Below, in pieces: positions 3,343 through 58,357 of a stretch of 64,000 nucleotides of DNA (positions within the stretch are counted from its first letter, which is position 1; every line of letters begins with the position of its first letter). The notes beneath the pieces are model-generated. The model searched no databases. It saw only the letters and a program-made list of their open reading frames with translations, and was not told the origin of the DNA. A program made the position numbers and the translations under genes. The stretch spans positions 32,001 through 96,000 of the forward strand of contig CAWBOC010000001.1 in NCBI GenBank assembly GCA_963790305.1. Direction: 5' to 3'. Origin of the DNA: an uncultured Gemmatimonadaceae bacterium (GTDB lineage: Bacteria; Gemmatimonadota; Gemmatimonadetes; Gemmatimonadales; Gemmatimonadaceae).

Positions 3343-4551
3343 TCAGGGCTCCATCTTCCAGAAGTCGATCCCCCCCGCCTGCTGTCCCACGTCCACCGTC
3401 GCGATGGTCTTGAAGGTCGCGAGGTCGATCATCTCCACGGTGCCCGGCTCGGAGCCGATCCCCTCGACGGAAATGAAGACGTAGCGATTGTCGGGCGAGA
3501 TGACCGCGCCGTGCACGACCTTCCGCTTCGTAGGCACGCGCGCGAGCTCTCGACCGCTGGCGATCTCGATGACCGAGACCGACTGCCCTCGTTTGTTCGT
3601 GCCGACGAGAAGGCGCCCGTCGCCCGACACGGCGAGATTGTACACGCCCGGGCCGGCGGGAATCCGGCGCGTCATCTTCCAGGTCACGACGTCGATCTCC
3701 ACGATGTCGCTCGACTTGTTGCAGGCGACGTAGACCTTCGAGCCATCGCTCGACGGCTGCGCCCACGTGGGGGAGCACGCGTCATCCCCTGGTTTCGGGG
3801 GCGTCATACCGTGCCCTGACGCATCGTGCTGCTGATGCGAGCCGGCGGCCATCTCGCGGTGCGGCGGCCCGGCGTCGCCATGCTCCTTTCCCTTGGTGAC
3901 CATGAAGTGTCGAGACGCGCCAAAGGTCCGTGTGTCGATCTCGACGACCATGTCATCCATCATGCAGGCGGAGTACTGCTTCGTCCCCTGCGGGTTGACC
4001 CGCGAGCCGTGCGGCATCACGCACGTCGTCGTGCGCGCGACCTCGACCATCGCTTCGGTGGCGACGATGGACACCGACGACGGCACCGGGTCGCCGTGCA
4101 GATTGAAGTTCACCACGTAGAGGAACTCGCCGTCGGGCGTCGTCTGCATCGTCGCGGGGAAGTTGCCGAGCTCGACGCGGCCCTTCAGCGTGTCCCCGAC
4201 CGTGGTGTACTTCCACACGGTGCCGAAGGGCGTTCCATGGGCGATGGAGACGTAGTAGTAGCGACCGTCGGGGGAGACGGCGACGCCATGCGGACCATCC
4301 ACGTCGGCGGGCATGATGCCCGTCGTCAGTCTATGGTCGACGTTGCCCCCGTTCGGCCCAAACCGCAGCAGCGCGATCTCGTCGGCCGATTCTGCTACGA
4401 CGTATACCAGGTAGCTGCGGTCAGGCATCGCGGGTGCAGCCGAGACCGGCGTGGCCGCGGGGGCCGGGTCGGGTCGCGCGGCCGGAGATTTCGCGCACGC
4501 AGCCAGGGCGGCACACGCGAGCAGCGGGAGATGGATCGGAGAGAAACGCAT
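3343..4551 (-). CDS. YncE/YVTN-type beta-propeller lipoprotein
   Basis: Start chosen at MRFSPIHLPLLACAALAAC (lipobox); repeated 'PHGVAVSPDG', 'YVVN', 'VSVI' blades. Confidence 0.85.
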   Translation of the reverse strand: MRFSPIHLPLLACAALAACAKSPAARPDPAPAATPVSAAPAMPDRSYLVYVVAESADEIALLRFGPNGGNVDHRLTTGIMPADVDGPHGVAVSPDGRYYYVSIAHGTPFGTVWKYTTVGDTLKGRVELGNFPATMQTTPDGEFLYVVNFNLHGDPVPSSVSIVATEAMVEVARTTTCVMPHGSRVNPQGTKQYSACMMDDMVVEIDTRTFGASRHFMVTKGKEHGDAGPPHREMAAGSHQQHDASGHGMTPPKPGDDACSPTWAQPSSDGSKVYVACNKSSDIVEIDVVTWKMTRRIPAGPGVYNLAVSGDGRLLVGTNKRGQSVSVIEIASGRELARVPTKRKVVHGAVISPDNRYVFISVEGIGSEPGTVEMIDLATFKTIATVDVGQQAGGIDFWKMEP

Positions 4552-4872
4552 GAAGACGATCCCCAAAGGACCAACGTCGGGTGGAGTGGAGTAGCTCAAT
4601 CTAGGTTCTTCCGGGATTTCCGAAATTGGCCGACCGAAGCTTCTCTTGCCGGTACCCCGCCCTCCCTCCCCACGGTCCAATCTGGCGTTTCGCGCAATGA
4701 TGTCGGATCGCTACACCGATCGTTGGTGCGACACCACGGTGTCGTTTACACGCCACTCTTGCAGAATCCACCGGGGACTCTCACTATGTGACGCCCATCA
4801 CACTCGAGCACGGCAGAACCGCAGCATCGCGCGAGTCGGGATGCACCACCCCACACCCCCCGGAGGCTCGTG

Positions 4873-5645: not shown

Positions 5646-6532
5646 TGTTCCTTCCTCCGCGGTAACGGTTCTTCGAGCGACTTGAGACGTTCCTCCAAAC
5701 GCGTGATCTCCAGCTGCACACCGAGCTCCCGCGCGAGGTCCAAACCCTGGGTATAGCATCGCTGCGCGATATCCTGCTGGCCGTCACGGCGATTGATGTC
5801 GCCAAGGAGGCGCAAGCACTCGACCCGCCGCCATCGGTTTCCGGCCATGTCGAAGTAGCCAAGTGCGGTGCTCGCGGCCTCGTCTGCCTGCTCGAGCTCG
5901 TCGGCGCATAACATCGTCTCGGCCAGGTTCATCGTCGCCAGTGCAGCCAGGTCGAGATCTTCGATCTCCCGCGCGAGGTCGACCGCGCGCGTGAGCACGC
6001 GCTCGGCGATCTCGAAGTTCTCGCCGTCCATCGCCGCGCGCCCGTAATTGTTGAGCGCGAACGCCTGACCCCACAGGTACTCGGCCGCCTGGAAGCAGCT
6101 GTACGATTCGAGAAACCGGTGCTCGGCCGTCTCGAAATCTCCCCCTTCGGCCGCGATGGCTCCGAGATTCTGCAGGGCGACTCCGCGGATGCGTGGGTCG
6201 GTCGTCATGGCGAGAATCCGCTCCAGCAGCGGTCGCGCCGCGGCAAAATCACCCTTGCTCTGGAAGACGGCCGCTTCCGCGTTGAGCGCTTCGGCGTGCG
6301 CGTCGACGAGCTCATGCCGAACAGCAACCGCAGCGCTCTCGCGCGCGGCCTCCAACGCGCCCTCCCAGTCGCAGCGCGTGCGCAGCACGCTCGCCCGGCG
6401 ACGCCAGGCCGTCGCGACTGTCAGCGGGTCGCCGCCACTCGCGGCGGCCTCGTAATGAGCAAGCGCGCGGTCCAGCATGCCGAATTTCTCGAGGCGAAGC
6501 CCTTCCTCAATGTCGCCGGCGGGATCAGGCAT
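5642..6532 (-). CDS. Tetratricopeptide repeat protein
   Basis: Repeated 'ALNAEA', 'ALQNLGAI', 'ALNNYGRA', 'TMNLAE' helical repeats; start uncertain (GTG 6556/6571 also possible). Confidence 0.8.
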   Translation of the reverse strand: MPDPAGDIEEGLRLEKFGMLDRALAHYEAAASGGDPLTVATAWRRRASVLRTRCDWEGALEAARESAAVAVRHELVDAHAEALNAEAAVFQSKGDFAAARPLLERILAMTTDPRIRGVALQNLGAIAAEGGDFETAEHRFLESYSCFQAAEYLWGQAFALNNYGRAAMDGENFEIAERVLTRAVDLAREIEDLDLAALATMNLAETMLCADELEQADEAASTALGYFDMAGNRWRRVECLRLLGDINRRDGQQDIAQRCYTQGLDLARELGVQLEITRLEERLKSLEEPLPRRKEQ

Positions 6533-6582
6533 GTCGGTTGCTGAGTCCGGCGTCACCCTGCCGCCACGCACGAGAGGCTCTC

Positions 6583-7116
6583 ATGGTTCGATGGACGGTT
6601 GTTCGGCGATTCACGACGGTGGCGCTTGCCGCCGCGCTCACTGCATGTAGTGAGCCCACCACCGCACCCACTTTTGACGAGCCCGCTCCAAGTCTGAGCG
6701 GGACGCAGACAGCCTCCGGCCTCCTCGAGTGTCGGAGAACCTTGTTCGACGTTACGTGGGGACTGGTCGGTCCGCTCGGAGGATTGATCTCCCTCGATGG
6801 CCACAGCATCAGCGTGCCTCCGCTCGCGCTCGACCGCGTGGTGCTCGTCGCCCTGCGCACGCCGTCGACGCGCTTCGTCGAAGTGGAAGCCCGCGTCAAT
6901 GGACGAGACCACTTCGAATTCGGGCAGCCCGTTACCGTCACGCTCGACTACTCACGCTGCCAGCCGTGGCAGATCGGCCCGGAGCCACTGACGGTCTGGC
7001 AAATCGATCCCGATACGAAGGAGTTCATTCGAGACATGGGCGGCGTCGACGACCGGGCCAACCGACGCATCTCGTTCACGACCGATCACTTCTCCGGGTA
7101 CGCGGTCGCGCAGTAG
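6583..7116 (+). CDS. Hypothetical lipoprotein (ZU5-like beta domain)
   Basis: Lipobox LTAC; 'GPLGGLISLDGHSISVPPLAL...F.QPVTVTLDY...TDHFSGYAV' resembles ZU5/GPS-like modules. Confidence 0.65.
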   Translation: MVRWTVVRRFTTVALAAALTACSEPTTAPTFDEPAPSLSGTQTASGLLECRRTLFDVTWGLVGPLGGLISLDGHSISVPPLALDRVVLVALRTPSTRFVEVEARVNGRDHFEFGQPVTVTLDYSRCQPWQIGPEPLTVWQIDPDTKEFIRDMGGVDDRANRRISFTTDHFSGYAVAQ

Positions 7117-7132
7117 CCATCCCTGATGTCAA

Positions 7133-8707
7133 TCACCTGCCACTCGACCGCCCAGTAACATTCTGGCGGTCGAGGATGGCGGTGTCGCCACGCGCAGCCT
7201 CCGTGGTGAAGAGCGAGACGACGATCCCGACCGCGAACGACAGCGGTATCGTGATCAACGCCGGATTCTTGAGTGGGAACCACGCGCCGGGCCTGCCCAG
7301 AACGTCCACCTGAATCGTCGGCGAGAACCAAATGAGTGCGAGTGCGGCAGTGGTCCCGATGACCATGCTCGCCACCGCGCCCGCGGTCGTACACCGTCGC
7401 CAGAAGATCGAAAGCACGAGCGCGGGAAAGTTCGCGCTCGCCGCGATCGCGAAGGCGAGGGATACCATGAAGGCCACGTTCTGTCCCTTGAACGTGATGC
7501 CGAGCAGAATCGCCGCGACACCAAGAACGACGGTCGCGACACGCGCGACGCGAAGCTGCTCCTTCGCGTCGGCGTGGGCGTGGCGCACGACGTTGACCCA
7601 CAGGTCATGCGACAGCGCCGCCGCTCCGGAGAGCGTGAGGCCGGCGACGACGGCGAGGATGGTCGCGAAGGCCACCGCGGCGATGAATCCGAGCAGCGGC
7701 GTACCCCCGAGCATTTCCGCCAGCAACGGCGCCGCCATGTTTCCACCCGGATCCACGGCGCGAATGGTCTCGGGACCCACGAGCACCATCGCGCCGAACC
7801 CGAGCACGAACGTCATGAGATAGAAGAATCCAATGAGTCCCGTCGCATAGAACACCGACTTCCGCGCCGCGCGCGCGTCGGGCACGGTGTAGAATCGCAT
7901 GAGGATGTGCGGCAACCCCGCGGTACCGAACATGAGCGCCATGCCAAGCGAAAAGGCATCGAGCGGATTCGACACCAGCCGTCCCGGCGCCAGTACGGCA
8001 TCGCCATAGCGCTCGGCCGCCGCCGCGAACAGGGCGGCGGGATTCATGTCGAAGCGCCAGAGCACCATCAACGCCAGGAGGAGCGCGCCGCCTAACAGGA
8101 GCCCGGCTTTCACGATCTGCACCCAGGTCGTCGCGATCATCCCGCCAAAGAGCACATAGGCGAGCATGGCCACGCCCACCACGATCACCGCCTGCTCGTA
8201 CGGAATGCCGAACATGAGGCGAATCAGTCCCCCTGCCCCGACCATCTGCGCGATGAGGTACAGGAGGACAGTCGCCAGCGTCCCCAGCGCGGCCGCGATC
8301 CGGACGGGGGTTTGCCGAAGTCGCGCCGCGACGACGTCCGCGAACGTGTATCGGCCGAGGTTGCGCAGCGGCTCCGCGATGAGAAAGAGCACGATGGGCC
8401 AGCCGACCAGCCACCCCGTGGAGTAGATCAGGCCGTCGAACCCGGTCGTCGACACGAGGCCCGCAATGCCGAGGAACGACGCGGCACTCATGTAATCGCC
8501 GGCGAGCGCGAAACCGTTCTGTCCCGCGCTCACGGTGCGGCCAGCGGCGTAGAACTCTTCGGTCGTGCGCGTGCGACGAGCGGCCCAGTACGTGATGCCG
8601 AGCGTCACCGCGATGAAGGCGAAGAAGAACCCCATCGCGATTCGATTGGGCTCGCCGAGCCTCGTGGCGCTCGTCGATGCACCCTGCAGGAGGGCAAGGA
8701 GGATCAC
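7133..8707 (-). CDS. actP: Cation/acetate symporter (SSS family)
   Basis: 'QNGFALAGDYMSAASFLG', 'GTAGLPHILMRFYTV', 'AASANFP'; GTG start overlaps the stop of the DUF485 gene. Confidence 0.93.
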   Translation of the reverse strand: MILLALLQGASTSATRLGEPNRIAMGFFFAFIAVTLGITYWAARRTRTTEEFYAAGRTVSAGQNGFALAGDYMSAASFLGIAGLVSTTGFDGLIYSTGWLVGWPIVLFLIAEPLRNLGRYTFADVVAARLRQTPVRIAAALGTLATVLLYLIAQMVGAGGLIRLMFGIPYEQAVIVVGVAMLAYVLFGGMIATTWVQIVKAGLLLGGALLLALMVLWRFDMNPAALFAAAAERYGDAVLAPGRLVSNPLDAFSLGMALMFGTAGLPHILMRFYTVPDARAARKSVFYATGLIGFFYLMTFVLGFGAMVLVGPETIRAVDPGGNMAAPLLAEMLGGTPLLGFIAAVAFATILAVVAGLTLSGAAALSHDLWVNVVRHAHADAKEQLRVARVATVVLGVAAILLGITFKGQNVAFMVSLAFAIAASANFPALVLSIFWRRCTTAGAVASMVIGTTAALALIWFSPTIQVDVLGRPGAWFPLKNPALITIPLSFAVGIVVSLFTTEAARGDTAILDRQNVTGRSSGR

Positions 8708-8979
8708 TTTCGCAACGCCTCGAGGCGCGCGTCGTAATGCGCGTTGGCCCAGTACACATACACCCAGGTGAGGAGCCACGACGCGACGATGACGCACACC
8801 CCCAGCAGAATGCCGAGTGTGAGCCCGGGTGCGACGCGCGTCGCGAGCAGCGGCTTGTCAAAGGCGATGAGCGCGATGAAACCGAAGTACACGGCGATCA
8901 TGATCACCGTCAACAGGATCGCGATCCTCCAACGCGCACGCGCCAGGGCGCGCACCTGATCGTGTGAGTCGTCCACCAT
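8704..8979 (-). CDS. DUF485 (YjcH-like) membrane protein, ActP partner
   Basis: Two TM helices, 'YFGFIALIAF', 'YVYWAN'; RBS GGAGGA; canonical position upstream of actP. Confidence 0.9.
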   Translation of the reverse strand: MVDDSHDQVRALARARWRIAILLTVIMIAVYFGFIALIAFDKPLLATRVAPGLTLGILLGVCVIVASWLLTWVYVYWANAHYDARLEALRK

Positions 8980-9133
8980 TCCTCCGCAATGCAGGGTCAA
9001 CGGGCGCGTGAAGATACGCGGCGGCGCCGCGGGCGGCTACGGCGCGTTCACGCGCGCCGGTGCGCGTTGCCTCAATGCCGCACGCTTGCCCGGGTCGCTG
9101 CACTGTGCGCGCTCACCCAGTACGGAGATCGTC

Positions 9134-9364
9134 ATGCATTCCATGATCGCCGGGCGCGTGGTCATTGTGGCGGCGGCATTGATCGCTGCCTGCGCCGACC
9201 CCGTGGGCCCGACTCAGCGGGTTGTCGAGGACCCGACCGTCGTCGCTGCGTTCGCGCGGCATCGCCCGGGGCCGGGTTCCGTTCCTGATTCGGTTGGTAT
9301 TCCGGCGCCGCCGATTCCGCCCATTTTCGAAGAGATGCCCGCGGGATCCGACGGGGCGCAGTGA
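9134..9364 (+). CDS. Small hypothetical lipoprotein
   Basis: GGAG RBS, lipobox LIAAC. Confidence 0.5.
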   Translation: MHSMIAGRVVIVAAALIAACADPVGPTQRVVEDPTVVAAFARHRPGPGSVPDSVGIPAPPIPPIFEEMPAGSDGAQ

Positions 9365-50757: not shown

Positions 50758-51607
50758 GCTCCTAGGCGCCCACGTCTCCTCCGCCGGCGGCACGCCTAAC
50801 GCGCCCGGCCGCGCCAAGGCCATCGGGGCGACCGCCATGCAGATGTTCTCGAAGATGGCCAACCGGTGGGCAGAGCGACTCTGTGAAGACGATGAGTGTC
50901 GTGCGTTTACGGCGGCGCTCACCGCCACGGACGTCCGCGCGACGGCGGCGCACGACAGCTACCTCATCAATCTCGCCTCACCTGATCCGGTGCTGCGCGC
51001 GCGGTCGCTCGCGTCATTCGAGTCGGAGCTGCGCCGCTGCGAAGCGCTCGGCCTGGGATACCTCGTATCGCATCCCGGGAATTTCATGGATGATCGCGCG
51101 AGCGGAATCGCGCGGAACGCCGAGGCGATCGGCATCGCGCTCGAGCGAGTCCCGGGGCGGGTCGTCATCCTCATGGAAATGACGGCCGGCAGCGGTACCG
51201 CCATCGGGTCGAGTTTCGAAGAGATGGCATCGCTGATCGACGCTGTGCCGGCACCGCATCGCGATCGCGTCGCGGTTTGCGTGGATACCGCACACGTCTT
51301 CGCTGCCGGCTACGACCTGGTCAACGACTATGAGGGCGTCTGGTCGCGCTTCGCGGACACTCTCGGGATGCATCGGCTGAAGCTCATGCATCTGAACGAC
51401 TCCAAGACACCGCTCGGCTCGAGGCGAGACCGCCACGAGCTCATCGCCGAAGGCGCTCTCGGAGAGCGAGCATTCCGCAGCATCATGACCGATGAGCGAC
51501 TGGTCCACATCCCCAAGGTCATCGAGACGCCCAAGCTCGATGATGCGGAGACGACCGACCGGCGTATGCTCGAGCGGCTTCGGAGTTATGTCGCCTCCAG
51601 CCCGTAG
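50756..51607 (+). CDS. nfo: Endonuclease IV
   Basis: 'GAHVS.AGG', 'HDSYLINLAS', 'HPG', 'CVDTAH', 'HLNDSK', 'DRH', 'ETP'; the conserved N-terminus starts at CTG 50756 (first ATG is 50837). Confidence 0.9.
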   Translation: MLLGAHVSSAGGTPNAPGRAKAIGATAMQMFSKMANRWAERLCEDDECRAFTAALTATDVRATAAHDSYLINLASPDPVLRARSLASFESELRRCEALGLGYLVSHPGNFMDDRASGIARNAEAIGIALERVPGRVVILMEMTAGSGTAIGSSFEEMASLIDAVPAPHRDRVAVCVDTAHVFAAGYDLVNDYEGVWSRFADTLGMHRLKLMHLNDSKTPLGSRRDRHELIAEGALGERAFRSIMTDERLVHIPKVIETPKLDDAETTDRRMLERLRSYVASSP

Positions 51608-51642
51608 CGGCAGGCCTCGCGACGATGTTATTGTCGGTTAGC

Positions 51643-51990
51643 ATGCGAACCCCGCGCTCGCCCCGACTCATCGGCCTCACCGGCACTGTGCGCGCCGCTG
51701 CCGCCCTGGTGACGATGCTGCAGCTGCTCCTCGTCGCCGCCGCGCCGCTCGCGGAGCGACAGGACAGCACAGTTGCCGCAATCCACGTCGAGCAGGCAGG
51801 GACGAGCACGCATCACGCGCACGGCGAGCTGTGCGCAGTATGTGCCGCGTCGCACCTCGTCGCGCCGCCAGCGCGCGCCGCTACGGCACCCGTCGTGGCC
51901 AGCGTGACCACCAGCGCCAGCGACGTCTCTCGCCCTCCCTCGACCGCAGCAGAGAGGCTCGACACCCAGCCGCGCGCACCGCCGGCCTGA
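51643..51990 (+). CDS. DUF2946/CruR-like secreted leader protein with a His cluster, CxxC and C-terminal RAPP arrest motif
   Basis: Hydrophobic signal (AAAALVTMLQLLLVAAAPLA), 'HVE....THHAHGELCAVCAASH', Pro/Ala linker, ends QPRAPPA*; alternative ATG at 51625. Confidence 0.8.
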   Translation: MRTPRSPRLIGLTGTVRAAAALVTMLQLLLVAAAPLAERQDSTVAAIHVEQAGTSTHHAHGELCAVCAASHLVAPPARAATAPVVASVTTSASDVSRPPSTAAERLDTQPRAPPA

Positions 51991-52091
51991 CGCATCGCGC
52001 CTTCCTGGCGCGCTCCTCGTACCATCCGCAGAACCACCGATCGCGCACGGCCCTTCGCGCCGGCGCGGCACTGCACAGGAGCACGATGCGT
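51990..52091 (+). promoter_or_regulatory. Intergenic RNA stem able to sequester the SD and start codon of the downstream gene
   Basis: 51990-52007 acgcatcg-c-gc-ct-tcctg pairs with 52076-52091 cagga-gc-a-cgatgcgt, which contains AGGAG and the ATG at 52086. Confidence 0.7.
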
Positions 52092-53447
52092 ACAATTTTT
52101 TTCAGTGGGCTGCTGATCGCGCACATCAGTGCGACAGCCGGCGCACAGCAACCCGATACGACGGCTCGGCGCGACTCGATCGCGCGCGCGGACAGCATTG
52201 CGCGGGCGGACTCGATCCGCCTGGTGCGCGAGCTCGAGCGCATCCGCGGCGAGGCGCGCCCGCCGCATGTCATGGGCGGCATGGCGCCCGCGCAGCCGCA
52301 GCAGCCCAACAACCCCGGACTCAACCCGAGCATCAGCGTCATGGGCGACATCGTCGTCGACGCGAGCCCCGATGGCAGCACACTCGAATCGGCTCGGCGA
52401 TTCGACATGCGCGAGGTCGAGCTGGCGCTGGGCGCCAACGTCGACCCGTTCTTCCGCGGCGATTTCATTCTGGGGCTCAGCGACGAGGAAGGCATCGCGA
52501 TCGAGGAGGGATACCTCACCACGACGTCGCTGCCATGGCAGCTCCAGGTGCGGGCTGGCCGGTTCCACCTTCCCTTCGGCAAGCAGAATACGACGCACCG
52601 CGCCGAGCTTCACACCATCGAATACCCGTACGTCATCCAGCGCCTGCTCGGCGATCACGGGGGAAAGGGGACCGGCGTCGCGTTGAGCAAGATCTTCTCA
52701 CCGTTTGGCTTCTATCAGGAGATTCAGCTCACGGCGATCGAACGATTCCCGGAGGAGCATCACGAGGAGGACGGCGGTCATCTCGCCGAGCATGGGTTCG
52801 AGGGAACTCCCGCCGAGCCGCCTAACCATTCGCTCGAGGGGCTGGGCTACACCGCTCGCTTCCGGAACTACTGGGACATTGGCGAGGCCACGAACTTCGA
52901 GGTGTCGTTTAGCGCCGGCACGGGCCGCATTGATGAGCCGTTCGGATGCGAGTCAGTGCTGACACCGGGACATTTCGATCCCTGTCCCGGCCCGCGCGGA
53001 GAGACCGCAGTGCTCGCGCGACAATCGCTCCTCGCCGGCGATCTCACCTTTCGGTGGCGACCGCTGCAGCACGGCTTGTATCGCTCGTTCATTCTCCAGG
53101 CGGAGGTGATGCGCCAGCATAACGACGAGCCAGCGCTTCCGGCCGGGCTCCCGGCCGGCGCTTCATATCTCGGTCCGACAGAGGAGACCACGGGCCTGTA
53201 CGTCTTCAGCCGGTGGCAGCTGTCACGGCGCCTGTTCGTTGGGGCCCGGTATGACCGGGTCGAGGCAGCGGCAGACGCGGAGCGAGACTTATCAGCGATT
53301 TCGGGGTACTTACAGTTCTTCCCCAGCGAGTTCTCGAAGATGGTGCTGGGGTATGAAAACCTACGGCCCGACGTCGGCGATCGCGTGAACCGTCTGCTCC
53401 TGCAGATGACGATCGCCATTGGACCGCACCGGCCACACCCGTTTTGA
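52086..53447 (+). CDS. Outer-membrane beta-barrel/porin-like metal uptake protein
   Basis: Signal peptide, 'NPSISV.GD', 'REVELALGANVDPFF', His/Glu loop EEHHEEDGGHLAEH, amphipathic strands, C-terminal GPHRPHPF; no plug/TonB box evident. Confidence 0.75.
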   Translation: MRTIFFSGLLIAHISATAGAQQPDTTARRDSIARADSIARADSIRLVRELERIRGEARPPHVMGGMAPAQPQQPNNPGLNPSISVMGDIVVDASPDGSTLESARRFDMREVELALGANVDPFFRGDFILGLSDEEGIAIEEGYLTTTSLPWQLQVRAGRFHLPFGKQNTTHRAELHTIEYPYVIQRLLGDHGGKGTGVALSKIFSPFGFYQEIQLTAIERFPEEHHEEDGGHLAEHGFEGTPAEPPNHSLEGLGYTARFRNYWDIGEATNFEVSFSAGTGRIDEPFGCESVLTPGHFDPCPGPRGETAVLARQSLLAGDLTFRWRPLQHGLYRSFILQAEVMRQHNDEPALPAGLPAGASYLGPTEETTGLYVFSRWQLSRRLFVGARYDRVEAAADAERDLSAISGYLQFFPSEFSKMVLGYENLRPDVGDRVNRLLLQMTIAIGPHRPHPF

Positions 53448-53459
53448 GCGGATGGACAT

Positions 53460-54362
53460 ATGAAACGCCTCGTCATCATTGGCGCGGCTGTGGCGACGCT
53501 TGGCTCTCCACTGTCCGCGCAGAAGCTTCGAATCGTCACCAGCACCACCGACCTGCACGACATCGCCCATGTCGTGGGCGGCAATCGCGTCGACGCCATG
53601 CACATTGCCGCGGGCTATCAGGACCCGCACTTCGTCGAGGCGAAGCCGAGCTTCGCCCTTCAGCTCGCGAAGGCCGACGTCTTCGCGTACGTGGGGTTGG
53701 ACCTCGAAATCGGCTGGATGCCGTCGCTCCTTGACGCGGCTCGCAACCGCCGGATCAACCGGGGTGGCAGCGGCGACGTGGACGTGTCGCGCGCGATCCC
53801 CGTGCTCGACGTGCAGGCGAACGCCGACCGCTCCATGGGCGATGTGCATCCGCGCGGGAACCCGCACTACTGGCTGCATCCCGAGAACGGCAAGCGCATC
53901 GCGCGCCTTTTCCGCGACAAGTTTTCCGAGCTCGATGCACAAGGCGTGTCGTCGTATCGCGGGAACACCGCGCGCTTCGAGGCCCGCATCGACTCGACCG
54001 TTCGCGCGCTCGCCCCGCAGCTCGCGGCGATTCGCAATCAACCGGTCGTGGCGTACCACACCAGCTGGCGCTACTTCCAGGACTTCACCGGCATGAACAT
54101 CGTCGGGTTCATTGAGCCCAAACCGGGCGTTCCGCCGTCCGCCTCTCACCTCGCCGGGCTCATTCAGCACATGAAGCGCACGAAGGCGAAGGTGATCATC
54201 ATGGAGCCGTTCTACGACCGGAAGATGCCGGACTTCGTCGCGCGCAACACGGGGGCCACGGTGCTCGTGTTGCCCCCGTCGGTAGCAGCGGTGAAGGGCG
54301 TCGACAACTACCTGGAGCTCATCGCCTACGACGTTCGACGCCTCGCCGAGGCGCTGCGTTGA
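53460..54362 (+). CDS. Metal ABC transporter substrate-binding protein (ZnuA/TroA cluster)
   Basis: 'DPHFVEAKP', 'GNPHYWL', 'YHTSW.YF', 'EPKPGVPPS'. Confidence 0.92.
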   Translation: MKRLVIIGAAVATLGSPLSAQKLRIVTSTTDLHDIAHVVGGNRVDAMHIAAGYQDPHFVEAKPSFALQLAKADVFAYVGLDLEIGWMPSLLDAARNRRINRGGSGDVDVSRAIPVLDVQANADRSMGDVHPRGNPHYWLHPENGKRIARLFRDKFSELDAQGVSSYRGNTARFEARIDSTVRALAPQLAAIRNQPVVAYHTSWRYFQDFTGMNIVGFIEPKPGVPPSASHLAGLIQHMKRTKAKVIIMEPFYDRKMPDFVARNTGATVLVLPPSVAAVKGVDNYLELIAYDVRRLAEALR

Positions 54363-55135
54363 GCGCGTTGGTGACGTTCGATCACGCGACGCTCGCATAT
54401 GGGCGTCGCGTGGTGCTTTCGGACCTCACCTTTCAGATTCCCGAAGGAGACTTTCTCGGCCTCGTGGGGCCTAACGGCGCCGGCAAGACGACAATCCTCC
54501 GCGCCATCCTCGGCACGCTCGATCCGACCAGCGGAACCGTAACCCGCCGCCCGGAGCTCAGGTTCGGCTACGTCCCGCAACGGGATCAGGTCGACTACAA
54601 CTTCCCGCTGCGAGTGCTCGACGTCGTCCTGATGGGCCGCTACGACCGCGTCGGCATCGGTCGCCGGCCCAGGCGCGACGATCGTGATCGCGCCCTCGCC
54701 GCACTCGATGCCGTGGGCATTCGGGAGCTGGCGATGGAGCCGTTGACCCGGCTCTCCGGTGGACAGAAGCAGCGCACGCTCATCGCGCGGGCGCTCGTGG
54801 GCGAGCCGAACCTGCTGGTGCTCGATGAGCCGACGACGGGGATGGATCTCGTCTCGACGACGCAGATTCTCGGACTGGTGCGTGAGCTGCACGAGCGGAG
54901 CGGGCTCACGGTGCTGATGGTGAGTCATGCGCTCAACGAGATCGCGAACTACGTCAGGCGAATCGCTCTGGTGCAGGAAGGAAGCTTCCGCATCGGCGCC
55001 GTCGACGAGATCGTGAACGAGCGCACGTTGAGTGAGGTCTATGGCATCCCGGTGGAAGTCGATTCCTTCGCGGGACATCGCATCGTCCTCGCCCGACGTG
55101 GCTCGGCGGTGGTGAAGCCGGGGGAGCGGCGGTGA
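54359..55135 (+). CDS. Metal ABC transporter ATP-binding protein (ZnuC-like)
   Basis: 'GPNGAGKT', 'GYVPQ', 'LSGGQKQR', 'LDEPT', 'VSH'. Confidence 0.92.
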   Translation: MSALVTFDHATLAYGRRVVLSDLTFQIPEGDFLGLVGPNGAGKTTILRAILGTLDPTSGTVTRRPELRFGYVPQRDQVDYNFPLRVLDVVLMGRYDRVGIGRRPRRDDRDRALAALDAVGIRELAMEPLTRLSGGQKQRTLIARALVGEPNLLVLDEPTTGMDLVSTTQILGLVRELHERSGLTVLMVSHALNEIANYVRRIALVQEGSFRIGAVDEIVNERTLSEVYGIPVEVDSFAGHRIVLARRGSAVVKPGERR

Positions 55136-55956
55136 TCGACGCGATTCTCCTCTTTCGCGATGCGCTGTACGGCGCGCTCGTCATCGCGCTCGTCTGCTCG
55201 GCACTCGGTGTCTACGTGGTTCTCCGACGGATCGTCTTCGTGGGCGCGTCGCTGGCGCAGATGTCGACGCTCGGCATCGCGATATCGTTCTGGTTGGCCG
55301 GCATTGGCGTCGCGGGGGTGATCACCAGCAAGCCCGTCATTCTCTCGCTCCTCGCGACGCTCCTCGGCGTCGTGTTCTTTGCGACGGGGATGCGGCGGGC
55401 ACGCATTCCGGCTGACGCCCGCATCGGTGTGGCGTACGTGGTGGCCGGCGCGCTGGCGATTCTCTTCATCGCCAAGGCCGCCGTCGGCGAAGCGCACGAC
55501 ATCTTCCTGCAGGGCAACATCCTCGGCATCACGCGTGGCGATTGGCTCGTCCTCCTTGGCGTGAGCGTCCCGGTGCTTCTCGTGCACGTGCTGTTCTACA
55601 AGGAATTTCTGTTCATCTCCTTCGACCAGGAAACCGCGCGCACGCTCGGGTATCGTGTCGAGCGTTGGACGCTCCTGCTGTATCTGACGATAGGCTTGTC
55701 GATCGCGTTCGCGATGCAGTTCGCGGGGTTGATGCTCGTCTTCGACTTCCTCGTGTTGCCCGCGGTGACCGGTCTGCTGCTGGCCCGTGGAATGGGCGGC
55801 GTGTTCGCGTGGGCGATTGGGGCGGGACTCGCGGCGGCGGTGATTGGCTTTTCGCTCTCCGTTCCGTTCGACCTTCCTACTGGTCCAGCCATCGTCGCGG
55901 TGTCCGGAGTGCTCGTGATCCTCGCATGGCTCATACGCCGACTTCGAGAGCGGTAG
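55132..55956 (+). CDS. Metal ABC transporter permease (ZnuB/ABC-3)
   Basis: 'LGVYVVLRRIVFVG', 'GNIL', 'SFDQETA', 'DLPTGPAIV'. Confidence 0.92.
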   Translation: MIDAILLFRDALYGALVIALVCSALGVYVVLRRIVFVGASLAQMSTLGIAISFWLAGIGVAGVITSKPVILSLLATLLGVVFFATGMRRARIPADARIGVAYVVAGALAILFIAKAAVGEAHDIFLQGNILGITRGDWLVLLGVSVPVLLVHVLFYKEFLFISFDQETARTLGYRVERWTLLLYLTIGLSIAFAMQFAGLMLVFDFLVLPAVTGLLLARGMGGVFAWAIGAGLAAAVIGFSLSVPFDLPTGPAIVAVSGVLVILAWLIRRLRER

Positions 55957-55968
55957 CGCGACGCGCGA

Positions 55969-55997
55969 TTGACGGACACGTTCGAGGCGGGTAAGTT
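55969..55997 (+). promoter_or_regulatory. Putative sigma70 promoter for maeB-pckA
   Basis: TTGACG - 17 bp - TAAGTT. Confidence 0.55.
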
Positions 55998-56017
55998 CAC
56001 GCGTCTCATGGTGTTAC

Positions 56018-56059
56018 AATGAGGAATGGGGACTGCCTCATTCCTCATTTCTCATTTCC
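56018..56059. repeat. Short 7-mer (TCTCATT-type) hairpin element in the maeB leader
   Basis: aatgaggaatggggactgcctcattcctcatttctcatttc. Confidence 0.6.
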
Positions 56060-56071
56060 TACCTCGAATAG

Positions 56072-58357
56072 ATGTCGACAAGCAGAGAGGACGCGCTCGA
56101 GTACCACGCCCGCGAGCGGCCCGGCAAGATCGCGGTCGTCCCGACGAAGCCGCTCACCAATCAGCGCGACCTCTCTCTCGCCTATTCTCCCGGCGTCGCC
56201 GAGCCTTGTCTCGAGATCAAGGCGAATCCGGAGGACGCGTATCGCTACACCGCCAAGGGCAACCTGGTCGCGGTCGTCACCAACGGAACCGCCGTGCTCG
56301 GTCTTGGCAACATCGGAGCATTGGCGGGGAAGCCGGTGATGGAGGGCAAAGGAAACCTCTTCAAGCAATTCGCCGATCTCGATGTCTTCGATCTCGAGGT
56401 GGGCTCGGAGAGTCCCGATGATGTGATTCGCTTCTGTCAGCTCCTCGAGCCGACGGTCGGCGGGATCAACCTCGAGGACATCAAGGCGCCCGACTGCTTC
56501 TACATCGAGGAGACGCTGCGGAAGACGATGAAGATCCCCGTCTTCCACGACGACCAGCACGGCACGGCGATCATCTCGGGGGCAGGGCTCTTGAATGCCG
56601 TCGAGATCGTCGGCAAGAACCTGGACACGATTCGGGTCGTCTTCTCCGGCGCCGGCGCCGCCGCCATCGCAACCGCCGAGCACTATGTACGACTCGGCGT
56701 GCGCCGCGAGCACATCACGCTCTGCGATCGCGAAGGGGTGATCTATCGAGGGCGGCCCGGCCAGCTCGATCCCTACAAGGCGCGGTTCGCTCTCGAGACG
56801 TCTGCCCGAACCATCGGCGATGCGCTCAAGGGTGCGGATGTCTTCGTGGGCCTCTCGGTCGCCGGCGCCGTAACCCGGGAGATGATCGCCGGCATGGCGG
56901 CGAAGCCCATCGTCTTCGCACTCGCCAACCCGGTACCGGAAATCCTGCCTGACGAGGTCCGCGCGGCCCGCACAGACGCGATCGTGGCCACCGGGCGGAG
57001 CGATTACCCGAACCAGGTCAACAACGTCCTCGGATTTCCGTTCATCTTCCGGGGCGCGCTCGATGCCCGCGCCACGGAGATCAACGAGGAGATGAAGATG
57101 GCGGCGACGCGTGCGCTGGCGTCGCTGGCGCGGCAGGACGTGCCGGAAAGCGTCGCGCGACTGTATGGGCTGGAGTCGGTGAGGTTTGGTCCCGACTACA
57201 TCATCCCCTTCCCGTTCGATCCGCGCGTACTGCTGTGGGTGGCGCCAGCGGTCGCCTGGGCCGCTGTCGCCACCGGCGTGGCGCGGGAGTTCATCGAGCT
57301 CGACGAGTATCGCGAGCGCCTCGAGGCGCGGCTGGGCCGTGCGCGAGGCATTCTGCGCGGCGTGATCCTGCGCGCACAGCACGCCCCCAAGCGTGTCGTC
57401 TTTCCCGAAGGGGAAGAGCCGAAAGTCATCCGGGCCGCGCGCATCCTGGTGGACGATGGTATCGCACAGCCGGTGCTGTTAGGCAATCGCGTCATCATCG
57501 AGCACCTCGCGCATGAGCTGGGCCTCTCCCTCGAGGACATTGCGACGGAGGACCCGTACAGCTCTCCGAACCGCGACCGGTACGCCACGGCGCTCTGGGA
57601 TCGGCGCCAGCGAAAGGGGCTCTCACTCGCCGAGGCGAATCAGCGGCTGCTGAATCCGAACTACTTCGGATCGATGATGGTCGCGCTCCAGGACGCCGAT
57701 GCGCTCGTCTCGGGAGTCAACCTGCATTACCCCGAGACCATCAGGCCGGCGCTGGAGGTGATCGGCGCGCACCCGCGGGCCGGTCTCGTCAGCGGCCTGT
57801 ACATGCTGGTCTTCGAGAAGCACGTCGTCTTTTGTGGGGACACGACCGTCAACATCGAGCCCACCTCGGAGCAGCTGGCGCAGATCGGTTACGCGGCGGC
57901 GCGCATCGTGCGCACCTTGGGCATTGAGCCGCGGGTTGCCATGCTGTCATTCTCGAACTTTGGCTCCGTCCGGCACCCCGAAGCCGAGAAGGTGGCACGA
58001 GCGGTTGCGCTGTTACGAGCGCGGGACCCGAGCCTCATCGTCGATGGCGAAATGCAGGCGGACACGGCGCTTGACGAGCACAAGCTCAACAAGACATACC
58101 CGTTCTCGGCACTCAAGGAGGCCGCCAACGTGCTGATCTTCCCGAGCTTGAGCGCCGGCAACATCGCCTACAAGTTGTTGCATCACCTGGGGGGCGCGAC
58201 GGCGATCGGACCCATCCTGGTGGGCATGCGCCGGCCGGTGCACGTTCTCGAGGAAGGGGCCGAGGTCGAGGAGATCGTCAACATGGCCGCGGTCGCGGTC
58301 GTGGACGCACAGGAGCGCGAACATCACACAGGATCCATGCGCGCGGTCGAAGGCTGA
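56072..58357 (+). CDS. maeB: NADP-dependent malic enzyme with a C-terminal phosphotransacetylase-like domain
   Basis: 'SLAYSPGVA', 'NGTAVLGLG', 'KPVMEGK', 'HDDQHGTA', '[11 protein letters not shown]'; PTA domain 'DGEMQAD'. Confidence 0.96.

Follow-up and report, generated by a model that had tools for sequence, protein, structure and literature searches.

A RAPP-ending leader gene ahead of a porin and ZnuABC-type importer operon in Gemmatimonadaceae: a candidate nascent-chain metal sensor

Can an operon for metal import be governed by a peptide that senses the metal while still being made? Metal uptake in bacteria is, by the textbook, under transcriptional control (Zur, Fur). The question is raised by a 115-codon gene found in a stretch of 64,000 nucleotides, hereafter the window, from an uncultured Gemmatimonadaceae bacterium (GenBank assembly GCA_963790305.1, contig CAWBOC010000001.1, positions 32,001 to 96,000). 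The gene precedes an operon for an outer-membrane porin-like channel and a ZnuABC-type ATP-binding cassette (ABC) importer, and its product ends in QPRAPPA*. In two published systems, CruR and CutF, a nascent peptide senses copper during its own synthesis (PMC9426467, PMC9973294; what we report of these and of the other papers cited here is drawn from parts of them). Judging from its sequence, the gene is most likely a leader that carries its own metal switch, a device demonstrated to date for copper only. If this is true, nascent-chain sensing governs a zinc-type ABC importer together with a porin, in a phylum for which it had not been described.

A conserved peptide with a His/Cys motif and a RAPP ending

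An earlier note, made from the letters of the window, had pointed out a hydrophobic segment, a His cluster with CxxC, a Pro/Ala linker and the RAPP ending in this 115-amino-acid product, and all of them are present as described:

51643..51990, + strand: leader gene, 115 codons plus TGA, candidate arrest peptide of a divergent DUF2946 (CruR/CutF-like) type
51694..51750, + strand: hydrophobic N-terminal segment, residues 18-36 (hydropathy and AlphaFold2 helix)
51784..51843, + strand: putative metal-binding motif H48-x-E50 ... G53-T54 ... H57-H58-x-H60 ... C64-x-x-C67 (from conservation)
51859..51972, + strand: Pro/Ala/Ser/Thr-rich linker, residues 73-110, free in sequence and fixed in length
51973..51984, + strand: RAPP codons, residues 111-114, proposed arrest site (conservation and analogy with CruR)

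The open reading frame (ORF) runs from the ATG at 51643 to the TGA at 51988-51990, a single Ala codon standing between RAPP and the stop, and a spacer of 95 nt separates this stop from the ATG of the porin gene at 52086. The start codon is kept in 11 of 11 aligned relatives; another ATG, at 51625, was ruled out as the start, being unconserved where ATG 51643 is invariant. Residues 1-17 include four basic residues (Arg) and no acidic one, and they lead into the hydrophobic stretch (about residues 18-36, Kyte-Doolittle values up to 2.27), a putative export signal or N-in membrane anchor. The His/Cys region, residues 48-67, reads HVEQAGTSTHHAHGELCAVC.

Could this be a chance frame in G+C-rich DNA, with RAPP as a chance ending? 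Such endings are not rare: 61 of the 41,609 stop-to-stop frames of at least 60 aa in the window's genome (66% G+C) have RAPP in their last 12 residues, so that the case rests on conservation; also, a crude filter on G+C at third codon positions gave the leader ORF no coding-like flag. A homologue search (E<=0.01) returned 83 matches, one of them the window's own product, all from Gemmatimonadaceae records or metagenomes, in agreement with the Gemmatimonadota-like host that the earlier note had supposed. The order nfo - leader - porin - ZnuA - ATPase (with the permease where the contig reaches it) is kept in 8 of 8 related genome loci, in accord with the coupling of the leader to an ABC importer and a porin-like protein proposed in that note. 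An alignment of 48 rows was made from the window and 47 of the other 82 homologues, spread over the score range. In it H48, E50, G53, T54, H58, H60 and C64 are invariant, H57, C67, R111, A112, P113 and P114 are conserved in at least 90% of the rows, and residues 80-105, approximately, are variable.

In 16 close relatives, aligned codon by codon, amino-acid variants were counted against synonymous codon variants. The counts are 17 against 53 in the sensor region (residues 44-72), 0 against 6 in RAPP, and 114 against 77 in the linker (residues 73-106); in every invariant His, Glu or Cys column both synonymous codons occur. Few amino-acid variants combined with many synonymous ones indicate selection at the peptide level in the sensor and in RAPP, and in the linker length alone seems to matter. 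A chance ORF, to which we give next to no credence, is ruled out by the conservation, the invariant motifs, the synonymous codon turnover and the position kept in 8 of 8 loci.

The same motifs were found beyond the close relatives. The sensor motif is also present in distant leaders, and the gap from CxxC to RAPP, 43 residues in the window, is 43-46 (mostly 44) in 23 of 24 leaders of the wider family, the exception being a leader without CxxC (L061). Among these 24 leaders RAPP occurs in 23 and RSPP in one, 1-9 residues ahead of the stop. The first Pro codon of RAPP is CCA or CCT in 16 of the 24, as compared with 14.3% of 2,568 Pro codons in neighbouring genes; the binomial p of 7e-9 is overstated, since the leaders share ancestry, and the window itself uses CCG. 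It may be that this bias favours pairing to the Shine-Dalgarno sequence that follows, or the use of a particular tRNA-Pro.

Alternatively, the product of the ORF could be a functional small protein that is anchored in the membrane and binds metal (for example a chaperone, a transporter accessory or a CzcI-like protein), with RAPP as a structural or targeting element. Conservation of both sensor motif and anchor would suit such a product, and for CzcI-type proteins, encoded upstream of czcCBA and devoid of a proline motif, a role as metal-sensing regulators has been discussed (PMC9973294). However, the AlphaFold2 model of the leader (predicted local distance difference test score, pLDDT, 63.2) contains no globular fold: it has a helix at residues 10-39 (pLDDT up to 95), a short helix at 59-73 that bears H60, C64 and C67, and a disordered tail, with pLDDT below 50 at residues 81-97. 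Such a model, with its single membrane helix, has the form expected of a leader peptide and not that of a folded periplasmic protein. A linker that is free in sequence and fixed in length, and a RAPP that is invariant apart from the single RSPP and always close to the stop, also speak against a finished product, as does the occurrence of the leader before three unrelated kinds of transporter (see below); moreover, the products of CruR and CutF are reported to be undetectable in cells (PMC9426467, PMC9973294). We regard a working small protein as improbable, and we think it probable, with some reserve, that the 115-codon gene is a regulatory leader, a divergent DUF2946 nascent-chain metal sensor, rather than a source of finished protein.

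The relationship to DUF2946 is distant. The only Pfam family matched by the leader is PF11162 (E 0.012, 16.8 bits), from position 4 to position 117 of a profile of 117. The family check suggested in the earlier note thus gave an end-to-end match, with a score that stays below the gathering cut-off of 23.7 bits. Among the 48 aligned members 35 match the profile at E<=0.1, and the best E value is 1.3e-4; both the score of the leader and this modest best value weigh against a firm assignment. The hallmarks of the CruR family are CxxC and RAPP, 45 residues apart in Bp2923 with a spacing constant within 1-2 residues, and an export signal is present in more than 95% of DUF2946 members (PMC9426467). 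The leader has the CxxC, the near-terminal RAPP, the spacing and an N-terminal export signal or anchor, and it is the first gene of a metal-related operon, followed by a long spacer (95 nt). It does not resemble the Sec/YidC-monitoring type (ApdA/ApdP) in its context: the downstream genes are those of the porin and ZnuABC, with no protein-localisation component. By its sequence, the leader is best described as a divergent Gemmatimonadaceae relative of the CruR/CutF-like leaders of DUF2946.

The importer operon, its metal and the cargo of related leaders

The four genes that follow the spacer were assigned by Pfam and by structure modelling, which agree with the outer-membrane protein, substrate-binding protein, ATPase and permease named in the earlier note:

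52086..53447, + strand: outer-membrane porin-like channel, 453 aa (AlphaFold2 and Foldseek)
53460..54362, + strand: ZnuA-family (cluster A-I) substrate-binding protein (PF01297, E 1.3e-49)
54359..55135, + strand: ABC ATPase, AztA/ZnuC-like (PF00005)
55132..55956, + strand: ABC-3 permease, AztB/ZnuB-like (PF00950, E 7.1e-46)

The binding protein aligns to ZnuA of Synechocystis (1pq4/2ov1) and has His in all three His columns, which we take to be the zinc ligands of that protein; in Mn-type binding proteins Glu or Asp stands in place of His. A PF01297 protein with the three His, together with PF00950 and PF00005, makes this a zinc-type importer of cluster A-I. For the operon's first gene the assignment comes from the structure model and not from sequence: no Pfam or NCBIfam family was over its cut-off, and the Porin_O_P match has E 0.23. 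The protein has a signal peptide, N-terminal DS[IA]ARADS repeats (of low model confidence) and a C-terminal ...HPF, and it is modelled as a beta-barrel (pLDDT 68.6; predicted template-modelling score, pTM, 0.68). Foldseek matched the model to OmpT, OprP, OprO and PorB at E values of about 1e-8 to 1e-7 (6ehd, E 3.9e-8; 2o4v_A, E 6.0e-8 with template-modelling scores of 0.48/0.52), i.e. to the general porin fold of OprP/OmpT-like 16-strand barrels. The porin family has a conserved C-terminal G-x-H-x-x-H-x-F, in which the aromatic ending is kept, and the clade of the window has an extra loop rich in His, Glu and Asp (about residues 225-240), poorly modelled, which may be a metal-gathering loop.

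How widely is the leader distributed, and what does it precede elsewhere? When 401 genomes from the phylum were scanned with the profile, 28 gave matches, the window's genome included; without the latter, the matches fall in 24 of 93 genomes of the window's family, in 2 of 166 and 1 of 5 genomes of two other families, and in none elsewhere. Four weak matches (L037, L038, L039 and L041) were not leaders on inspection. Twenty-four places from the scan were examined with their flanks; a leader was found in 23 of them and none in the fetched stretch of L064. Behind the 23 leaders lie porin-like, ZnuA and ABC-3 genes in seven cases, OEP / HlyD_D23 / ACR_tran efflux genes in twelve, TonB-dependent receptors in three and a contig edge in one. 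In one of the eight related loci mentioned above, L006, the leader and the porin gene are separated by an insertion (6290-9259) with a ZnuD-like TonB-dependent receptor (824 aa) and a lipoprotein-like ORF of 156 aa, so that the leader there heads an array of receptor, porin and ZnuABC.

The same site, between nfo (endonuclease IV) and the malic-enzyme gene, holds leader plus porin-ZnuABC in some genera and leader plus a CzcCBA-type pump in others (compared in L042, L046, L053, L058, L060, L062 and the window, 50837-58357), and the cargo seems to have been exchanged there behind a retained leader. One genome, G214, even has two paralogous leaders, one before porin-ZnuABC (L045, G214:C52) and one before an OEP efflux gene (L052, G214:C29). 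Leaders of importers and of efflux pumps showed no difference in motif or spacing. The tree built from 30 of the leaders (the window, the 23 distant leaders and 6 of 15 close ones) leaves 15 of 27 inner branches open and is compatible with a single origin of each type. The window's own genome has no second leader, the profile search giving one match; two better PF11162 matches in this genome fall within open frames that are 457 and 338 aa long. In a distant importer subtype (L044, L046, L055, L057 and L060) the porin is 25-28% and the binding protein 31-40% identical to those of the window, and no match to the window's ATPase lies between the genes for binding protein and permease.

The wider family also bears on the metal. 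For the receptors of L006 and L059 the best-scoring model is ZnuD (161.5 and 189.9 bits), as compared with 67.9 and 41.6 bits for the copper-receptor model. The pumps behind related leaders belong to the CusA/CzcA family (886-907 bits, over the cut-off in six of six tested), and seven of nine carry D-F-G-x3-D-G-A-x3-V-E-N, presumably a divalent-cation signature, with variants in the other two. The one adaptor tested is nearer to CzcB/NccB (139.8 bits) than to CusB (45.6 bits). The genome of the window, 94% complete, has a single ZnuA gene. Its only Fur-family gene (L074, G000:C9:351379-351732) scores 82.6 and 75.1 bits against Fur and PerR and 29.9 against Zur, all under the cut-offs, and no clear Zur was found in a search that took in the Fur family only (ArsR/SmtB and MarR/AdcR were not searched).

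Several points weigh against zinc. The calls for AztC, ZnuD, CzcB and Zur are all below curated cut-offs: the best NCBIfam match of the binding protein, AztC, reaches 123 bits, the proteins of the operon stay under the equivalog cut-offs set for AztC, AztA and AztB, and the ZnuD scores of the receptors lie far under the cut-off of 950. CxxC, moreover, is a classic Cu(I) site. The ligand may be copper, as in CruR and CutF, with the operon serving copper or mixed-metal supply: CxxC is the copper motif of DUF2946 (PMC9426467), the characterised relatives all sense copper (PMC9426467, PMC9973294, 10.1101/2025.02.05.636593), and one related porin-ZnuA operon (L044) contains a gene for the copper chaperone PCuAC (4346-4825, - strand), the sole copper-pointing neighbour and a frequent neighbour of CruR/CutF homologues. 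Set against copper are the three-His ZnuA type of the binding protein, the receptors and the adaptor being nearer to ZnuD and CzcB, the presumed divalent-cation signature in the pumps, and the invariant extra His cluster, which is no hallmark of DUF2946. We hold copper to be a less likely alternative, and from the sequences we would give zinc an even chance of being the ligand.

Spacer RNA and a proposed mechanism

If the leader acts by arrest, how could a stalled ribosome be felt by the porin gene 95 nt downstream? The fold predicted for the spacer with RNAalifold and RNAfold offers one answer:

51990..51996, + strand: 5' arm of a long-range helix, the A of UGA plus CGCAUC, pairing with GAUGCGU in the start-codon region of the porin gene
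51997..52011, + strand: small G+C hairpin between the two arms, 100% of alignment cells paired
52012..52017, + strand: anti-Shine-Dalgarno GCUCCU, pairing with AGGAGC at 52077-52082
52077..52091, + strand: Shine-Dalgarno AGGAGC (52077-52082) and GAUGCGU (52085-52091) of the porin gene, predicted to be sequestered

The minimum free energy of the predicted fold is -48.4 kcal/mol, as compared with -38.1 +/- 3.5 for shuffled sequences (z -2.95; 2 of 200 shuffles equal it). Conservation is concentrated in the stop-proximal bases, the G+C hairpin, GCUCCU and the Shine-Dalgarno/AUG region, the middle being variable. In an alignment of 15 sequences, to which a metagenome scan contributed seven loci, 97.0% of 270 cells are paired, and a shift of the partner by 1-3 columns lowers this to 23.7-53.0%; for the arm at 51990-51996 the figure is 96.2%, with invariant columns, and in the hairpin one C-G pair becomes U-G in 4 of the 15 sequences. 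The pairing is thus feasible. With 16 nt from the P-site codon blocked, as by a stalled ribosome, the mean probability of being unpaired rises from 0.14 to 0.37 in the ribosome-binding site. Among the 399 segments of 20 nt in leader and spacer, the one beginning 12 nt past the P-site codon ranks first as a partner of this site.

Other observations count against the fold or limit what can be drawn from it. No pair in the helices shows a compensatory change, with 8 sequences or with 15, and for the 15 the observed values are attained in 500 shuffles out of 500; as the columns that pair do not vary, the alignment speaks neither for nor against the fold. The comparison with slid partners favours the fold, the structure having come from these very sequences, and the conservation of Shine-Dalgarno, AUG and stop-proximal bases could be explained by other causes. 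Furthermore, the anti-Shine-Dalgarno helix persists in the minimum-energy fold despite the blocked footprint. When the wider family is considered, the stall-proximal segment comes first among the partners of the ribosome-binding site that follows in just 6 of 21 loci and ranks within the best 2-21% in the other 15 (the downstream start codons being our own choice); with 6 of 21, we do not claim such a partnership as a rule of the family. In several loci, importer and efflux alike, the Shine-Dalgarno sequence of the following gene is predicted to pair with the codons of the stall or with the region of the stop.

From these elements the following mechanism may be proposed. The N-terminal hydrophobic segment would bring the nascent chain to the membrane, and translation would be arrested once both Pro codons of RAPP have reached the P site and the A site. 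RAPP is known to arrest ribosomes, from the arrest and toeprint of CruR (PMC12992588) and from RAPP structures (PMC10951233); by analogy with the CruR toeprint (PMC12992588), we propose that Pro113 (51979-51981) would occupy the P site and Pro114 (51982-51984) the A site. A distance of about 44-65 residues would then separate the His/Cys motif from the peptidyl-transferase centre, which would place the motif at the tunnel exit or past it; by this estimate, it may or may not have arrived in the periplasm by then. The stalled ribosome would mask the stop codon along with the bases immediately 3' of it, so freeing the Shine-Dalgarno and AUG of the porin gene, and the opened ribosome-binding site would let the porin and ZnuABC operon be translated. 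Metal bound to the nascent motif would alter the duration of the stall. For the homeostasis of an importer, the metal, most likely Zn2+, would be expected to end the stall and switch uptake off, as proposed for copper and CruR.

Release by metal is not established, however. The same sensor motif, with the same spacing, heads 12 efflux operons, and if importer and efflux leaders share a wiring in which the stall means 'on', homeostasis needs opposite responses to the metal; the sign cannot be read from the sensor alone. Opposite signs have a precedent, as copper ends the stall in CruR and causes it in CutF (PMC9973294). A bolder reading, which we consider rather unlikely, is that the Gemmatimonadaceae sensor module is a portable zinc-responsive translational switch that replaces a Zur-type repressor and has been wired to zinc import (porin-ZnuABC and ZnuD-like receptors) and to Czc-type efflux. 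If it holds, the determinant of the sign would lie not in the sensor but in the residues that follow RAPP, in the codons at which the ribosome stalls or in the RNA of the spacer, and this would be the first zinc-sensing arrest peptide.

The output of the stall might also lie elsewhere. After the ribosome has gone, a C-rich and G-poor stretch (51840-52079, GC skew -0.18 to -0.32), which resembles the rut region described for cruR (PMC9426467), may add Rho-dependent termination. It is conceivable, though we would bet against it, that arrest occurs as proposed and that its output is mainly this termination, the helix over the ribosome-binding site being secondary or incidental: a stalled ribosome would shield the C-rich rut site, and its release would lead to termination before the porin gene. 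CruR works in this manner (PMC9426467), the 95-nt spacer exceeds what simple translational coupling would need, and a scan of 51200-52300 found no intrinsic terminator. Against it stand the unusual stability of the sequestering fold and the fact that the arms of this fold are the conserved parts of the spacer. The two outputs are compatible and have the same sign, with the stall as 'on'.

As for transcription, one further conserved element lies just upstream of the leader:

51627..51636, + strand: A+T-rich motif GTTATT[G/C]TCG, 7 nt 5' of the leader ATG

All 11 of the aligned relatives agree at nine of its ten positions, and its flanks are variable; it includes a -10-like TATTGT (51629-51634), and the scan mentioned above found no consensus sigma-70 promoter in its region. 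From its sequence, the motif may serve as a promoter from which a leaderless or near-leaderless transcript starts; alternatively, it may be a half-site for a regulator. Distant leaders have a TAnnnT hexamer about 5-13 nt 5' of the likely start (seen by eye, with no statistic). Together with the motif of the window, these hexamers suggest leaderless or near-leaderless transcripts from a promoter of their own, inside or just past nfo.

Comparison with known systems

Roy et al. 2022 (PMC9426467) described a family whose neighbours are TonB receptors, PepSY_TM, ScoC, PCuAC, YcnI, CopC, MbnPH and AhpC_TSA, in Proteobacteria and a few Planctomycetes, Firmicutes and Deinococcus; their supplementary family list with taxonomy has no 'Gemmatimon' row. 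Ozturk et al. 2023 (PMC9973294) grouped 5,334 'CutF-like' proteins into 29 sequence clusters, with OEP, HlyD_D23, ACR_tran, CusF, TonB-like, PCuAC and HupE/UreJ neighbours, not all of them copper-specific, and the efflux and receptor contexts of our relatives are therefore already covered in print. Zinc does not occur in the main text of that paper, nor do ZnuA, PF01297, ABC-3, PF00950, Porin or Gemmatimon in part of its supplement (File S1 lying outside that part). A survey of RAPP peptides from 2025 lists TonB receptors, YcnI, PCuAC, PepSY, DsbA and thioredoxin as downstream classes (PMC12992588); its main text has no mention of zinc, ABC transporter, efflux, resistance-nodulation-division (RND) or porin, and no such class appears in the ten supplementary files searched (files 8 and 10 being outside). 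Full-text searches on DUF2946, RAPP arrest peptides, CruR, and stalling with zinc uptake gave no account of the combination of leader and porin-ZnuABC.

A published hint of a link between DUF2946 and zinc comes from Caulobacter crescentus, where CC2720, a DUF2946 gene listed in a table of the Zur regulon, lies directly before the Czc-type Zn/Cd efflux operon czrCBA and is affected in a zur mutant (PMC4176598). Unlike the window, this is a context of efflux and not of import, and the paper, in the parts drawn on here, proposes no role as leader or arrest peptide. ApdA, ApdP, ApcA and SecM (PMC7897499, PMC10951233, PMC10951299, PMC12992588) share with the window leader a C-terminal R-A-P-P core and a localisation signal in a small protein encoded upstream; in contrast to it, they monitor Sec/YidC activity and have no metal motif.

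CutF of Rhodobacter capsulatus (cutFOG; PMC9973294) is, as we propose for the window leader, an exported nascent sensor that stalls at a C-terminal proline motif. Its stall unfolds a stem that shields the next Shine-Dalgarno, which has been shown experimentally (PMC9973294; 10.1101/2025.02.05.636593), whereas in the window this is predicted. The differences lie in the motif and in the sign: CutF has CxxxC and PPP, depends on elongation factor P (EF-P), and its stall is induced by copper and turns on a detoxifying oxidase, while the window leader has RAPP and an importer as cargo, and the sign is expected to be reversed.

CruR (Bp2923 of Bordetella pertussis; PMC9426467) has several features in common with the window leader: an exported small ORF that is first in an uptake operon, CxxC followed after about 45 residues by a C-terminal RAPP, a long spacer, a region with more C than G, and the expected logic, in which the metal ends the stall and uptake goes off. 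It differs in that the window leader scores below the PF11162 cut-off and has the additional invariant H-x-E...HHxH cluster. The cargo is a TonB receptor and PepSY_TM in CruR, in place of a porin and a ZnuABC-type importer, and CruR acts via Rho, with a dispensable signal peptide, whereas a fold sequestering the ribosome-binding site is predicted in the window (PMC9426467).

Whether metal prolongs or ends a stall is the question left between the CruR and CutF papers, and the importer and efflux leaders of sister genera are matched natural pairs for it. If the switch is indeed portable, the two leaders of G214, L045 and L052, are a natural pair for the 'release' logic of CruR and the 'induce' logic of CutF, and for how the sign is set. 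What is new in the window in relation to all these systems is a RAPP leader with an added His cluster, placed before a zinc-type ABC importer and a porin, in Gemmatimonadaceae.

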